Source: a virus. Taken from it: 32,394 bases of DNA. Positions 3,057-13,242 of the stretch are shown here, in pieces; position 1 is the first letter of the stretch, and each line of letters starts with the position of its first letter. A program made the position numbers and the translations under genes. Under the pieces are notes generated by a model. The model did no database searches. It was not told where the DNA came from and worked only from the letters and a program-made list of their open reading frames with translations. The stretch spans positions 1 to 32,394 of IMG/VR virus record IMGVR_UViG_3300010167_000008; one strand, 5' to 3'.

Positions 3057-4742
3057 TCATGGTTTTTTGAAGATTAAAACGTTCTGATGCACTCTGACGA
3101 CTTTGCTCGTCTTCATGCAGTTGTTGGCTCGCATTCCCGCGTTGCCAAATTTATTAACGAGGATAATCTCGTTGTAAAACTTGCAGCCCGCGTCCGTGAA
3201 CGCTCGGATAGTGTCGGGGACGAACCCATAGTAATTCCCGTCCTTGTCGCGAAATTCGCTAACTACAAAGGCAGCAAACCCGCCACGTTTGAGCACACCG
3301 CAAGACTTTTCTATTATCTGTCGGTACACCTGCATAAACGCGGGATATTTCATCGTGGATAGGTCTTCTGGAATGTCGCTGTACACTTCGAGGTCTCCAT
3401 ACGGAGGGCAACTCATAACCATATCAAACTCCGCTCCTTCGAGCATATCAAGGATTTGATTGCTGTCGCCGATAATCCAATTCGGCATCTTGATTTCAGG
3501 AGCCGCAACGGGGGTGCGCATGGTGGGTCGAATGCCAACTATCCACAGTAGGTCAGCGGGTTGTAGAAAGTCAATACACTTCGCCTCGTAGTATGGGTCG
3601 AGTTGAATTCCATTGTAAGTAGTAACCATTGCAGCGGAATGATAATCGCTACCATCGACGTCGACGATAGTAACCATGTCCCTCCAATTTGGCGGCGCGT
3701 ACTTATCAAGTCGCACCTCAGGGTCAGCACCAACGCGCACCGCAACAACGGGGATGTCCCGCATAGTGTCGCGCAACCCCCAAAGTACACCCGCAAGGGT
3801 CATGCCGCTTCCGCATGGCATTACAATCCGATTGACTTCGGGTGGAATGTTCTGAACTTGTTGGCGGTTCTGAGTAACAGCCTCTTCGCACTCCATACCA
3901 AAGGGGACGTCAAGATAATTCTCGGCGGCGGCAAATTCTCGGCTCCGTGCAATAATGACGGAGTTATAACCTTCCTTGTGCTGAATTATCCTCGCGCCGC
4001 TGTCTTGCGCCGCAATTAGTTCGTCGGATAACTGACCTTCGGGCGCGTGTACCACAACGGGAATGCCAAAGGCTTTTCCAATTTTGGCGAGGATATTGAT
4101 TTGCGGGCTGCTTCTGCTCCCCGCCGTTGTTATCCCCTGACCGACCGTGCGGTTCTTGATAACGAATTGAGAAGCCGTGCGAGCCTTCCCGCCAACCGCG
4201 CCACCGATTTCGAACAAGTCGTCCCGCTTGAAATAGACGTCGTCTATCAGTTGCACGGGGGTTAATTCGTTCGGGTTGCTGATGATTTGCGGTTTGGCGT
4301 TGGCAGGTGATTTGAATATTTCGCGGGCTTGCTCGTAATTGCTCTCGACCTGCTCCTTGCGGAGTTCAATGCCCGTGTAATCATAACCGAGTTTGTTGGC
4401 AACAATTCCTCGAACGGAGCCTCCTGCAAATGGATCAAGAATAGTCCCTCCCGTTGGCGCAAACCACTTGTATAACACTTCGCAGAGTGTCGCGCTGAAT
4501 ATACTTATATTAGATTTGAATTGTGTGCCAAATCTTGCATTATTCCTATTAGCGCCGCACCGTTCATTTCTTCCTAATTCTGACTTGATTCCCTTGCGTA
4601 ACCATTTGCCCTCGTTTTTATTATAATCGCCCGAGCGGGTGTCAATTATGGAAAATGGGTTCAGTAGGTACTTCCCCGCGCAAGTGGTTGTCGCGTCGAC
4701 CTTGTCGCCGAATAAGTTGTAATTTTTATTTTGTTCTGTCAT
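3057..4742 (-). CDS. Fusion protein (561 aa): permuted N6/N4 DNA amino-methyltransferase with an inserted ACC-deaminase/D-cysteine-desulfhydrase-like PLP enzyme domain (aa ~158-407, nt ~3522..4271)
   Basis: MTase motif I ILDPFAGGSVRGIVANKLGYDYTGIEL (aa 101-127) and motif IV FDMVMSCPPYGDLEVYSD (aa 439-456). Insert carries TPVQ, FKRDDL, GGAVGGKAR (K186), ITTAGSRSSPQ, PCGSGMTLAGVLWGL and GIQLDPYYEAKC. ATGA overlap with the helicase gene. Confidence 0.8.
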   Translation of the reverse strand: MTEQNKNYNLFGDKVDATTTCAGKYLLNPFSIIDTRSGDYNKNEGKWLRKGIKSELGRNERCGANRNNARFGTQFKSNISIFSATLCEVLYKWFAPTGGTILDPFAGGSVRGIVANKLGYDYTGIELRKEQVESNYEQAREIFKSPANAKPQIISNPNELTPVQLIDDVYFKRDDLFEIGGAVGGKARTASQFVIKNRTVGQGITTAGSRSSPQINILAKIGKAFGIPVVVHAPEGQLSDELIAAQDSGARIIQHKEGYNSVIIARSREFAAAENYLDVPFGMECEEAVTQNRQQVQNIPPEVNRIVMPCGSGMTLAGVLWGLRDTMRDIPVVAVRVGADPEVRLDKYAPPNWRDMVTIVDVDGSDYHSAAMVTTYNGIQLDPYYEAKCIDFLQPADLLWIVGIRPTMRTPVAAPEIKMPNWIIGDSNQILDMLEGAEFDMVMSCPPYGDLEVYSDIPEDLSTMKYPAFMQVYRQIIEKSCGVLKRGGFAAFVVSEFRDKDGNYYGFVPDTIRAFTDAGCKFYNEIILVNKFGNAGMRANNCMKTSKVVRVHQNVLIFKKP

Positions 4743-6178
4743 ACTTTTTTTGATTTAGTTGGTAGTGAAAAAGGGTCGAGTTCGCCGAAGCAAAAGTCAA
4801 GGTCGGGCATCGCCCAATCGAGACCGACATAGCAATAACAGTTTTCGAAGCCCTTGCGGTTTACGTTCTTTTTGACAACGCCCTGCCTTGATAACTCTTG
4901 GTCGATGAGTTTACGGGTTGCAATCGGCAACACCCCAAAGGTGCTCCGCAACTTGTCGTTCACGTCTTTAACCGCAAGTATTGCCAACGGGTTATCCTTG
5001 TCAATCATAAAGATTTTCATATACTCCGAATAACTCGTTTGCACGGTTTTATCCGTTCGGTTGAGTTTGGGCTTGTAACGGAAACTTTTAATAAAATCGA
5101 CAATAATCTTGTTGCGTTCGGGTTGGAATACGTCGAGGAAGTTGGTGTTTCTGTCCCACGCAATTTCAAGCGTTTTCTCGGGACTTTCATATTCAATCAT
5201 ACGTCTAATTGTCCCGCTGTCAATATCGTTTATTACAATGGGATTATTACTGAAATACACCACACTTGCGCACACTTGCAACGTGCCGCCGTTGGTACTC
5301 AATTCACGATAAGGAACGCTCGTGCCACTTGTAATCCTCTTGATGAGGTTGTTGTCTTTTTGGCGTTCGTTGCTTTCGTCAATCAGTATCGTCGAGGCGC
5401 GGTTCATCTTGCGTTTTTCGACGATAAAGTCGTAACCGCTGACCCGTGTGCTGAATGCCTCCTCAGTAATCTCGCAGATAAGTCCGTCAAAGATTTGGCA
5501 CATGAGAGCAACGAATGTCGATTTGCCGCTCCCGCCTTTTCCTTTGACAGATACAAAGTATTGTCCGCCCCGTGTACGTTGGAGCGATTTGCTGAACACC
5601 GAAAGGAGTTCGTAGTATTCGTCCTCATCCTTGACGCCGAAAACATTGTAACAAAGTTTCCGAAAGTTGCTCGGCGGCTCTTTGTCTTCCCAATCGAGAT
5701 TATCCACGAGTACGCTGTCAATGCAGCACACCTCGCGGCATCGCGGGGATAATGTTTCAGGTTTCAGATATCGAACGATGTACGGGTGCGGCTTGAGCCA
5801 CAACCCGAGTTCGATGTTGTCGTCGGCGTGGTTACGGAAGTGCAAATTGCGCTCGTAACCATTTGCCGCCGCCCGCTGTTCGCGGTCAATTATACGCTTG
5901 AAAATCTGGTCGATAAAGTCTTTGCAGTCTATAAGTTCCTGTCGGTCAGTGAGTATCTCTTGGATGTCGGGATACTCATGCTCTTCGGGTGTCATATTCG
6001 CCAACACCCGCCGCGCAATAAGGTAACAGACGGGGAATTGTGTACTCGATTCCTTGACCGAAATCTTATACATTACTCCCTCGTCGTTGAACCAATATTC
6101 GCCGCCATAATAGACAATGTCGTCAATCCAATACTTTCCGCGTGATGTGATATAGGTGGAAAAATCTTTGCTATCCAT
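4739..6178 (-). CDS. SF3 helicase, D5/P4-type NTPase (479 aa)
   Basis: Walker A VKGKGGSGKSTF, Walker B-like ILIDES, then LIKRITSGTSVPYRELSTNGGTLQVCASVVYFSNNP, typical of P4/D5 C-terminal helicase domains; no primase motifs recognised. Confidence 0.7.
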   Translation of the reverse strand: MDSKDFSTYITSRGKYWIDDIVYYGGEYWFNDEGVMYKISVKESSTQFPVCYLIARRVLANMTPEEHEYPDIQEILTDRQELIDCKDFIDQIFKRIIDREQRAAANGYERNLHFRNHADDNIELGLWLKPHPYIVRYLKPETLSPRCREVCCIDSVLVDNLDWEDKEPPSNFRKLCYNVFGVKDEDEYYELLSVFSKSLQRTRGGQYFVSVKGKGGSGKSTFVALMCQIFDGLICEITEEAFSTRVSGYDFIVEKRKMNRASTILIDESNERQKDNNLIKRITSGTSVPYRELSTNGGTLQVCASVVYFSNNPIVINDIDSGTIRRMIEYESPEKTLEIAWDRNTNFLDVFQPERNKIIVDFIKSFRYKPKLNRTDKTVQTSYSEYMKIFMIDKDNPLAILAVKDVNDKLRSTFGVLPIATRKLIDQELSRQGVVKKNVNRKGFENCYCYVGLDWAMPDLDFCFGELDPFSLPTKSKKV

Positions 6179-12366: not shown

Positions 12367-13242
12367 TTATAAGGAGTTTACATAATCCTTCAATTCTTGG
12401 ATATAGGTAACGCGCTCGCGTTCTTCTGTGTCTTTTAGTTCAAAAAACAAGTTTTCGTCAAACACGCTGTTAATTGCTTCCTCACACATGGATTGTATTT
12501 TTTCTGGGCGCACGGCGTCGAGTTCCACTTGTCCCAACCCATCCCAATTCGCTGTCCTGCTATCCGTAACCTTTGCAGGCGCGGGCGGCAACTTCCACTC
12601 GATAACTTGGTGCTCCATGAGCGAAATCCGTCTCACGTCCACGTCCACTCCGAGTTTCATGAGATTATCCTTGATTGCGCGTGGTATGTCCTCCCCACTT
12701 GGGTCATAGTCGCCAAAGTACAATATCACGGGTGTTTTTCCATGTCTCACGGCACGTTTGAAACGGCGGGATGCTTCATATAGAAACGTCAAAGAAGGAT
12801 AACCCTTGCAAGCCCCCAACCCGACGTCGTGTTTACTGCACACCTTGTCAAATACTCCCTCGAGTGCCTTTTTTTCAATAAATACCTCAGGATAAATCGG
12901 TTGATTTTCCCAACGGTTTTTTCTGTAAACCGTCATCCACAATCCGACCTGACGTTGTCCTTCGTCAATCTTGTCAGATAACACGGTTTCGTCGGCGTTG
13001 GTGTCGTTTGCCATTTCTCTATCCCTGTCGCAGAATGTATCAAAATCAACAAGCCCGTCCCACCTTGCAACGCCCATCGCCGCAACGACGCGGTCGTAGT
13101 GTTGTTGTGTGTTGGTCATGCCGATAGATACGAGTTGGTAGTGGAGTGCTCTGATTGTGAGCACTCCTTTTTCGTAGCGTTTGATAATCTCTAGGCTGTT
13201 CTCAATTATCCATTGTCTTGTAAATTGGTCTCTTGCTGCCAT
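12367..13242 (-). CDS. Spo11/Topoisomerase VI-A-like protein (5Y-CAP + Toprim), 291 aa
   Basis: R31-A-L-H-Y35 matches the R-x3-Y catalytic Tyr motif; Toprim Glu in VFIEKKALEGVF; KGYPS; DxD in ILYFGDYDPSGEDI; C-terminal GQVELDAV. Confidence 0.65.
   Translation of the reverse strand: MAARDQFTRQWIIENSLEIIKRYEKGVLTIRALHYQLVSIGMTNTQQHYDRVVAAMGVARWDGLVDFDTFCDRDREMANDTNADETVLSDKIDEGQRQVGLWMTVYRKNRWENQPIYPEVFIEKKALEGVFDKVCSKHDVGLGACKGYPSLTFLYEASRRFKRAVRHGKTPVILYFGDYDPSGEDIPRAIKDNLMKLGVDVDVRRISLMEHQVIEWKLPPAPAKVTDSRTANWDGLGQVELDAVRPEKIQSMCEEAINSVFDENLFFELKDTEERERVTYIQELKDYVNSL

Follow-up and report, generated by a model that had tools for sequence, protein, structure and literature searches.

What reaction is carried out by a protein in which a DNA amino-methyltransferase-like fold is interrupted by a complete pyridoxal 5'-phosphate (PLP) enzyme? 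The question is raised by a gene on the minus strand of a viral DNA of 32,394 nucleotides (IMG/VR record IMGVR_UViG_3300010167_000008, positions 1 to 32,394), which is referred to here in its full length as the window. The gene (3057..4742) is a single uninterrupted open reading frame (ORF) and its 561-aa product, P0001, is composed of a methyltransferase-like N-half, an inserted PLP domain and a methyltransferase-like C-half. Comparison with its relatives suggests that P0001 probably makes a new DNA base modification that is larger than a methyl group. A more specific reading is put forward tentatively, with somewhat less than even confidence: the methylase-like domain would move the 3-amino-3-carboxypropyl (acp) group of S-adenosylmethionine (SAM) to a base amine, and the PLP domain would decarboxylate it to an aminopropyl group.

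Two enzymes in one reading frame

An initial annotation, made from the letters of the window, had described one intact frame in which a PLP enzyme with its Schiff-base lysine at residue 186 interrupts an amino-methyltransferase, both enzymes appearing catalytically intact; this description held in each of its parts. The 561-aa product was identical in three assemblies made independently of one another (ENA, Logan and JGI; contigs of 32.3-32.4 kb), so that P0001 is neither a frameshift, a chimera nor an assembly artefact. The interrupted architecture was supported by two Pfam models, by structural matches and by relatives that lack the insert.

The inserted PLP domain (aa 158-410, 3513..4271; all coordinates within the gene refer to the minus strand) was recognized by Pfam model PALP (PF00291) over aa 167-341 with E 2.3e-12 and 47.3 bits (gathering score 35). 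Its best Foldseek matches were Salmonella D-cysteine desulfhydrase (DcyD; 4d8t, E 8.6e-12), the Pyrococcus 1-aminocyclopropane-1-carboxylate (ACC) deaminase homologue 1j0a and ACC deaminases, and these matches, with hhalign comparisons to DcyD and the phage M6 gp52 family, identify it as a fold-type-II PLP domain. The predicted Schiff-base lysine, Lys186 (codon 4185..4187), was aligned with Lys54 of 1j0a, the GGNK lysine of DcyD and Lys36 of M6 gp52, and in a set of 296 PLP domains it was kept in every one that covers the column (293/293). In the same set YE[AGS]K was found in 294/296, Ser-Pro-Gln (SPQ) in 282/296 and GSGM in 261. The phosphate-binding glycine loop of P0001 reads GSGMT (aa 311-315, 3798..3812), and Y385-E386-A-K388 (3579..3590) is the equivalent of the Tyr294-Glu295 motif of ACC deaminase: Tyr385-Glu386 aligned with the Tyr-Glu pair of true ACC deaminases (YEGK in 1f2d), DcyD having Tyr-Thr (YTGK) and M6 gp52 YDLK at this place. 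The Ser-Asn-His/Gln loop of ACC deaminase and DcyD, which contacts PLP O3' and the substrate, is absent, and S212-P213-Q214 (4101..4109) stands in its stead. Scores against the curated NCBIfam models were 27.6-31.3 bits for TIGR01275 (cut-off 289.4) and 15.2 bits for TIGR01274 (cut-off 392). Because these values lie so far under the cut-offs, the domain is assigned, on sequence grounds, to a distinct, compact viral subfamily and not to the ACC deaminases.

Only two phage members of the wider family have been characterized. M6 gp52 and ViI gp226, both of them purified, are PLP-dependent decarboxylases of thymidine hypermodification; their substrates are thymine conjugates of glycine and serine within polymeric DNA, and 1j0a was the basis for a model of ViI gp226 (Lee et al., NAR 2021; PMC8989533). 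An hhalign comparison of the PLP-domain profile with the M6 gp52 family showed full-length homology, with 223 aligned columns (probability 95.4%, E 1.9e-8), YEAK falling on YDLK, and stand-alone relatives that are 53% identical to the insert matched the gp52 family (phrog_7093) at E 1e-12. Structural neighbours in the ESM Atlas include viral proteins with Pfam families ADDT and aGPT-Pplase3, aGPT-Pplase being a transferase family of thymidine hypermodification. Among the neighbours of P0001 aa 156-412 in that collection, viral proteins of 732 aa join a similar PALP domain to ADDT/aGPT-Pplase3 domains. The ESM Atlas also holds Bacillota proteins of 483-561 aa in which a structurally similar PALP domain (TM 0.82-0.85) is joined to GNAT acetyltransferase domains, and PDB 9jqf (Campylobacter jejuni Cj0600) is a compact PALP protein of 281 aa with insert-like size and fold (TM 0.66 by target).

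The methyltransferase-like halves comprise aa 76-150 (4293..4517; beta1, motif I, beta2 and a helix) and aa 418-561 (3060..3491; beta3, beta4 with motif IV, and beta5-7), as delimited by Pfam, by alignment to the solved Thermus methylase 2zie and by modelled secondary structure. They are preceded by an N-terminal region (aa 1-75, 4518..4742) which carries, by homologue consensus, a family-wide PFS..D.R.G.W..R block. Pfam model N6_N4_Mtase (PF01555) matched P0001 with 41 bits in two stretches (gathering score 26.7), and aa 82-134, which hold motif I, fell on model positions 166-218, at the C-terminal end of this beta-class model. On 2zie, aa 424-496 (motif IV) aligned with chain residues 26-99 and aa 75-133 (motif I) with residues 213-271. 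Since both alignments are circularly permuted, the motif order of P0001 is permuted as well: motif I (DPFAGGSVRG, aa 103-112, 4407..4436, including Gly108 and Arg111) comes before motif IV (C445-P-P-Y448, 3399..3410), and not after it as in the beta class. Motif IV has Cys in place of the canonical Asp, Asn or Ser of the PF01555 pattern (D/N/S)-P-P-(Y/F/W). CPPY was invariant in an alignment of 116 sequences, and Cys445 was present in almost all of 381 family cores. Motif IV as [ST]-C-P-P-Y and motif I as D-P-F-A-G-G-S-V-R-G (canonical forms (D/N/S)PPY and DPFxGSGTT) are found family-wide with or without a PLP domain, and neither can serve as a signature of PLP association, insert-less relatives carrying the same motifs. 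Most homologues bear an N-terminal ParB_N extension of 200-350 aa (PF02195), which P0001 itself lacks.

An AlphaFold2 model of P0001 was built on 116 homologues (pLDDT 90.6, pTM 0.82). In the model the PLP domain follows the helix behind beta2 (aa 129-143) and leads back into beta3 (aa 421-424), and in insert-less relatives that are 57-65% identical to both halves, the residues equivalent to aa ~143-160 are joined straight to those equivalent to aa ~418-420. One insert-less relative was modelled and gave a complete class-I methyltransferase fold resembling PrmA, Trm11 and TrmN; judged from this relative and from the order of strands and helices in the P0001 model, the class-I SAM-binding Rossmann fold is complete once the insert is removed. 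The model would place the insert in the loop before beta3, on the edge of the sheet opposite the cofactor.

Distribution and arrangements in viruses

In a search of 5.8 billion proteins, 5417 relatives of P0001 were retrieved at E<=1e-5; the best 120 of these all carry both PF00291 and PF01555, many of them with a ParB N-terminal domain. With the PLP domain alone, 892 clusters (50% identity) were recovered; the 363 that lie at E<=1e-30 are almost entirely viral, and the ESM Atlas neighbours of the domain were 84-100% viral. A census of 36,145 prokaryotic genera returned 516 'carriers', almost all of which were distant PALP enzymes in the lowest score band, leaving too few true carriers for a neighbour test. 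The PLP subfamily is essentially absent from cellular genomes. The architecture is not rare: it belongs to a large virus-restricted family, in which the two partners are linked in at least four arrangements, tandem fusions and separate neighbouring genes included. The accompanying statement that no enzyme of this architecture has been characterized agrees with the literature searched, in which no paper on the fusion, on a CPPY methylase or on an acp or aminopropyl DNA modification was found.

The locus sets were picked by similarity search, and the architecture counts that follow are not population frequencies. Among 256 fetched proteins, 178 have the inserted form (methylase N-half, PLP, methylase C-half), 25 are tandem fusions with the methylase followed by PLP, 4-5 are fusions with PLP followed by the methylase, and 41 are PLP proteins with no detectable methylase. 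The fusion is present in cultured phages, namely Pseudanabaena phage Pam4 and Erythrobacter phages R6L and ZS04. In Mycobacterium phages Vincenzo and AlanGrant the methylase and PLP parts are adjacent genes (Vincenzo gp1 and gp2); these are not a frameshifted fusion, gp1 being a contiguous insert-less methylase and gp2 a separate PLP gene that has the lysine. A PLP gene and an insert-less CPPY methylase are likewise separate neighbours, in either order, at IMG/VR loci L035, L037, L038, L041 and L043. In a protein of 1049 aa (P0129, L099:8001-11150) the same viral PLP domain is found at the N-terminus of a family-A DNA polymerase with a CPPY methylase 1 kb upstream; a stand-alone PLP gene, too, lies within ~1 kb of a CPPY methylase.

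When 97 methylase cores were placed on a maximum-likelihood tree, the arrangements came out intermingled; given the well-supported branches, the minimum number of label changes is 5 for the inserted, 4 for the tandem-C, 5 for the split and 3 for the tandem-N form. The clade of P0001 (Shimodaira-Hasegawa approximate likelihood ratio test, SH-aLRT, 98) holds four insert-less forms, three inserted forms and one split form. No third conserved gene was found beside the methylase/PLP pair in 38 loci. The recurrent fusions and neighbours, the interspersed labels and the lack of a third partner amount to a strong Rosetta-stone signal, according to which methylase and PLP enzyme would form a two-component module with the PLP enzyme as an add-on that is gained and lost. 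Complex prediction for the methylase and the PLP protein of L035 gave a score of 0.03 (mark 0.32), which bears neither way on binding.

Several further arrangements were seen. Staphylococcus phage Alsa_1 (Twort-like, 146 kb; L186:2915-5675) has a stand-alone PLP homologue with YEAK 1 kb downstream of a TSPPY-type methylase, which extends the pairing to large myoviruses of Gram-positive hosts. PLP and SET domains are joined in two proteins. P0221 (680 aa, L097:4564-6606) has in addition a TSPPY methylase-like region at its N-terminus, and P0256 (735 aa) carries DUF5872 as well. Two paralogous CPPY methylases occur in some phages (L060, L069 and L072), and in Microcystis phage Mae-JY30 (L006, 1639-3957) three ParB/methylase genes are adjacent.

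Relatives adjacent to a SAM decarboxylase

A sister clade of the CPPY methylase (SH-aLRT 100) has the motif I FD[CT]FAGD[ST]VFG, in which Gly108 is replaced by Asp and Arg111 by Phe. By the canonical register of motif I, the new Asp would correspond to the Asp in the GGGDGG of spermidine synthase, the residue that selects decarboxylated SAM. Methylases of this Asp type were collected from 80 loci (L103-L182), none of which has a PLP domain. In 67/74 IMG/VR loci the Asp-type gene is directly followed, within ~25 nt or with overlap, by a homologue of SpeD which is minimal in size and keeps the ESH self-processing site. Among the loci of the Arg-type search (L012-L091), the sole SpeD homologue was found in L069, a phage with one Arg-type and one Asp-type methylase, and there it stands behind the second, Asp-type copy. 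Motif I and the adjoining decarboxylase gene covary: Asp in motif I together with an adjacent SAM decarboxylase was found only in the sister clade, and P0001 has Gly108 and Arg111 and no SpeD homologue in the window. No spermidine synthase was noticed near the Asp-type methylase/SpeD pairs. Stutzerimonas phage ZRG1 (L007:2003-3860) also has such a pair.

In Croceibacter phage P2559S the pair is gp66/gp67 (L184:2033-3674). An E. coli speD mutant regains the ability to make spermidine when given the SpeD homologue of this phage, which is therefore a genuine SAM decarboxylase (Li et al.; PMC9992855); the gene tested was presumably gp67, which is annotated as SAM decarboxylase in the retrieved part of the P2559S record. 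From its gene partner and its motif I, the sister clade looks like an unrecognized enzyme that uses decarboxylated SAM on DNA. The PLP-linked enzymes keep Arg111 as the PLP-less enzymes do, with GGSVRG in 183/201 inserted forms, which fits carboxylate-bearing SAM as the donor and decarboxylation after transfer.

Proposed reaction and alternatives

The initial annotation had argued for post-replicative hypermodification beyond simple methylation and had named chemistry on the amino-acid end of SAM as one possibility; comparative evidence points in this direction. Transfer from the acp side of SAM is proposed, as the simplest reading, because both accessory enzymes read as amino-acid decarboxylases and are mutually exclusive, and because the methylase that is partnered with SpeD, a pyruvoyl enzyme working on the donor, has lost the Arg and gained the Asp at the place expected for the carboxylate of the donor; the PLP-linked methylase keeps the Arg, as PLP-less members do. 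P0001 would be a self-contained, two-step, post-replicative DNA hypermodification enzyme. In the first step, the methyltransferase-like domain (DPFAGGSVRG, CPPY) would flip a base out and, instead of or besides methyl transfer, pass the acp group of SAM to an exocyclic amine, either N6 of adenine or N4 of cytosine, with release of methylthioadenosine. In the second step, the PLP domain, via Lys186, would engage the alpha-amino group of the amino acid now attached to DNA in a Schiff base and remove the carboxylate, leaving a cationic 3-aminopropyl group on the base, as M6 gp52 and ViI gp226 do with thymine conjugates of glycine and serine. In the sister clade the order of the two events would be reversed with the same outcome, SAM decarboxylase making decarboxylated SAM from which the Asp-bearing motif-I variant transfers aminopropyl. 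The nature of the transferred group, the target base and the action of the PLP domain as a decarboxylase on DNA are predicted from these comparisons. By extension, the CPPY family may be one not of methyltransferases but of widespread phage DNA aminoalkyl transferases, placing the acp or aminopropyl part of SAM on adenine or cytosine, with two convergent routes to an aminopropyl base; this is plausible and falls a little short of probable.

The position of the insert on the edge of the sheet opposite the cofactor, as modelled, and the existence of split and tandem forms argue for two sequential active sites. A composite site, in which the PLP site faces the base pocket, appears unlikely on the same grounds.

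Several points weigh against acp transfer followed by decarboxylation on DNA. Nearly all characterized PF01555 enzymes are plain N6-adenine or N4-cytosine methyltransferases, and close PLP-less relatives with identical motifs are present in complete phage genomes such as those of Enterococcus phage phiFL3A and Listeria phage B054; should these relatives be ordinary methylases, there would be no DNA-borne amino acid for the PLP domain to act on. The modelled location of the insert on an edge away from the cofactor site implies no channelling. P0001 itself gave no match to phrog_7093 at E<=0.01, and the PLP-domain profile scored E. coli DcyD at 69.6 (E 1.3e-9) and M6 gp52 at 46.9 (E 3.2e-6). The domain is accordingly not nearer to the M6 gp52 decarboxylase than to DcyD, and homology alone does not single out a decarboxylase function. 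The Asp-type clade represents a single evolutionary event, and the equivalence of its Asp to that of spermidine synthase would follow from motif register only; hhalign of the Asp-type methylase with E. coli spermidine synthase SpeE gave no alignment (probability 1%). A few inserts without the Schiff-base lysine are still retained (Erythrobacter phages R6L and ZS04, loci L036 and L039), from which it follows that the PLP domain can also have a non-catalytic role. In Erythrobacter phage vB_EliS_R6L gp1 (L002), L036 and L039, the inserted PLP-like domain has Thr or Leu for the lysine and has lost SPQ, and such inserts are apparently inactivated.

Some of these points are shared by an explanation in which P0001 does no more than methylate N6 of adenine or N4 of cytosine, as common DNA methyltransferases do, and the PLP domain acts on the cofactor, either removing the inhibitor S-adenosylhomocysteine ('self-cleaning') or serving as a SAM lyase that starves SAM-dependent host defences. 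The N6_N4_Mtase score is over threshold, and the methyltransferase fold is complete in an insert-less relative. Members with and without PLP share identical motifs I and IV and are mixed on the tree, so that the transfer chemistry seems to be independent of PLP. The PLP domain is at least as like the free-amino-acid lyases (DcyD, ACC deaminase) as it is like a DNA decarboxylase. The joining of PLP to SET, a second SAM-dependent methyltransferase fold, in some relatives suggests the cofactor as the common denominator, but of these SET proteins P0221 also has the N-terminal TSPPY methylase-like region. Action on the cofactor would leave unexplained the tie of the sister clade to a genuine SAM decarboxylase, the motif-I changes that are expected for a carboxylate-free donor, and the invariant Cys of motif IV in place of Asp, Asn or Ser; a SAM lyase joined to a SAM-consuming enzyme would moreover be self-defeating. 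We know of no member of the ACC-deaminase/DcyD family that acts on S-adenosyl compounds. The explanation is the main rival to acp transfer and is considered unlikely, while deserving to be kept in mind.

The mutual exclusion of PLP and SpeD over ~160 loci, as for isofunctional replacements, could also mean that the PLP domain decarboxylates SAM itself: as a PLP-dependent counterpart of SpeD, unrelated to it by descent, it would make decarboxylated SAM in situ before aminopropyl transfer. Fusion would favour the hand-over of this scarce cofactor, and the acidic Glu386 at the pyridine-N position fits, as we understand such enzymes, decarboxylase-type chemistry. The PLP-linked methylases, however, keep Gly108 and Arg111 as the PLP-less ones do, with none of the Asp/Phe changes of the SAM-decarboxylase-adjoining clade. 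The characterized phage PLP relatives, too, act on DNA-bound substrates, and decarboxylation of free SAM by the PLP domain is regarded as improbable.

A mainly structural or regulatory PLP domain, serving as a dimerization module or small-molecule sensor with no chemistry in DNA modification, would suit the lysine-less inserts kept in Erythrobacter phages R6L and ZS04 and in L036 and L039, as well as the gain and loss of the insert among close relatives. Fold-type-II enzymes are typically dimers. Such a role is very improbable for P0001, in that Lys186, the phosphate loop, SPQ and YE.K are near-invariant in 296 sequences at ~45-60% identity, stand-alone genes without the scaffold included. A cysteine-synthase-like beta-replacement or beta-elimination by which the flipped base would receive an alanyl or another group derived from a free amino acid, a reaction that the initial annotation had suggested from a fold-type-II fold, an intact lysine and a fusion to a base-flipping scaffold that are all confirmed here, is scarcely to be expected: the domain is in the ACC-deaminase/DcyD branch and not the cysteine-synthase branch, with an acidic residue at the Glu295 position and characterized phage relatives that are decarboxylases of DNA-linked amino acids, the SAM-binding motifs are fully conserved, so that SAM would still be used, the split and tandem forms, like the remote point of insertion, speak against one common active site, and the SAM-decarboxylase-linked sister clade would be left unexplained.

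Genome context

The gene upstream of P0001 in the same operon (4739..6178, minus strand) encodes a 479-aa SF3-helicase-like replication protein with Pfam DUF5906 and a P-loop. Its TGA and the ATG of P0001 share the ATGA at 4739..4742 (minus-strand letters at 4742-4739, GTATGACA), and the overlap described earlier is thus confirmed on that strand. The window represents a small siphovirus-like phage, for which scans against PHROG recognized a large terminase, a prohead protease, a tape-measure protein, RecT, an SbcC-like ATPase, RusA and an endolysin. A 291-aa ORF at 12367-13242 (minus strand) matched phrog_6247 ('DNA topoisomerase') at E 1.8e-61. The earlier remark that no other DNA-modification gene is visible stands in so far as none was recognized by PHROG scans of the 30 other ORFs of the window, many of which have no family match. 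Neither a 5-hydroxymethyldeoxyuridine (5-hmdU) DNA kinase nor aGPT-Pplase was found in these 30 ORFs or in the 38 PLP-positive loci.

The three assemblies of the phage (32,301-32,411 bp; window compared with L008-L010) start at different points, and the large-terminase ORF at the high end of the window runs on, in L008, past its low end. The differing start points suggest that the phage genome is complete and circularly permuted, at ~32.3 kb. No near-identical phage was present in the INPHARED collection.

The insert had been noted by eye as richer in GC than the DNA on either side. This is true of overall composition (53.2% in the insert, 45.9% and 48.1% in the flanking halves, 42.9% in the window) but not of third codon positions (0.57 in the insert vs 0.51 and 0.59 in the flanks). 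Because the third-position values are similar, the excess reflects amino-acid composition, and a recent foreign origin of the insert is ruled out as its cause.

Implications

DNA hypermodifications are the main means by which phages evade restriction and other nucleic-acid-targeting defences, and they are a source of tools for sequencing, for labelling and for making nuclease-resistant DNA. The known PLP-tailored pathways all begin with 5-hydroxymethyl-pyrimidines that are made before replication. If the proposed reaction is correct, P0001 and its relatives would provide a compact post-replicative route of one or two genes that needs only host SAM and PLP and yields a cationic or zwitterionic adduct of a purine or cytosine. 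The product would be the first SAM-derived aminoalkyl modification of a DNA base, and P0001 the first case of a PLP enzyme built into a methylase fold that modifies DNA; the proposal would also explain the validated SAM decarboxylase without a spermidine synthase in a subset of marine phages, such as Croceibacter phage P2559S. Even if the transferred group is methyl, a methylase with a built-in PLP accessory would be new enzymology. The family is abundant and uncharacterized, and it is present in cultivable phage-host pairs: Vincenzo and AlanGrant of Mycobacterium smegmatis, Pam4 of Pseudanabaena, P2559S of Croceibacter and ZRG1 of Stutzerimonas. The hypothesis is therefore directly testable by standard nucleoside mass spectrometry.

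Relation to characterized enzymes

Among characterized systems, M6 gp52 and ViI gp226 share with the PLP domain of P0001 the form of a compact (~250-280 aa) viral fold-type-II PLP enzyme of the 1j0a-like branch with a Tyr-acid-x-Lys motif, and they too are encoded beside, or fused with, an enzyme that installs a group on DNA. Their partners are a 5-hmdU DNA kinase and aGPT-Pplase acting at the thymine C5-methyl, whereas the partner in P0001 is a SAM-dependent amino-methyltransferase-like domain. Identity between M6 gp52 and the P0001 PLP domain is ~21%, the SPQ loop is absent from gp52, and the PLP activity of P0001 is a prediction. The PLP domain also resembles AcdS, DcyD and PH0054, which give its best structural and profile matches and share the lysine and the glycine loop, with the Tyr-Glu pair in common with true ACC deaminases; it differs in being ~80 residues shorter, in its Ser-Pro-Gln loop, in its restriction to viruses and in its joining to a DNA enzyme.

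The methylase-like domain has the class-I Rossmann fold, DPFxG and PPY in common with PF01555 methylases (Thermus TTHA0409, 2zie; CcrM; M.MboIIA) and with phage ParB-methylase fusions. In the P0001 family, by contrast, the motif order is permuted, motif IV has Cys, motif I has Ser-Val-Arg-Gly instead of Ser-Gly-Thr-Thr, and P0001 carries the 250-aa PLP insert. Transfer of the aminopropyl or acp part of SAM or decarboxylated SAM by class-I methyltransferase folds is known from SpeE (with SpeD), Tyw2, Tsr3 and TapT, and muraymycin Mur24/Mur23, with PLP-dependent alkyl transfer and decarboxylation, are a precedent for a decarboxylase paired with such a transfer. P0001 differs from SpeE and the acp transferases in that no sequence relationship to SpeE is detectable and in that its acceptor is presumed to be a DNA base. 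The CmoX DNA carboxymethyltransferase of phage S-B43 (PMC12783734), an example of altered SAM donors being used in the CmoA/CmoB manner, belongs to the C5-cytosine methyltransferase class and works with another accessory enzyme and no PLP; like the system proposed here, it has a methyltransferase fold that places a group other than methyl on phage DNA, together with an accessory enzyme that tailors the SAM-derived group.

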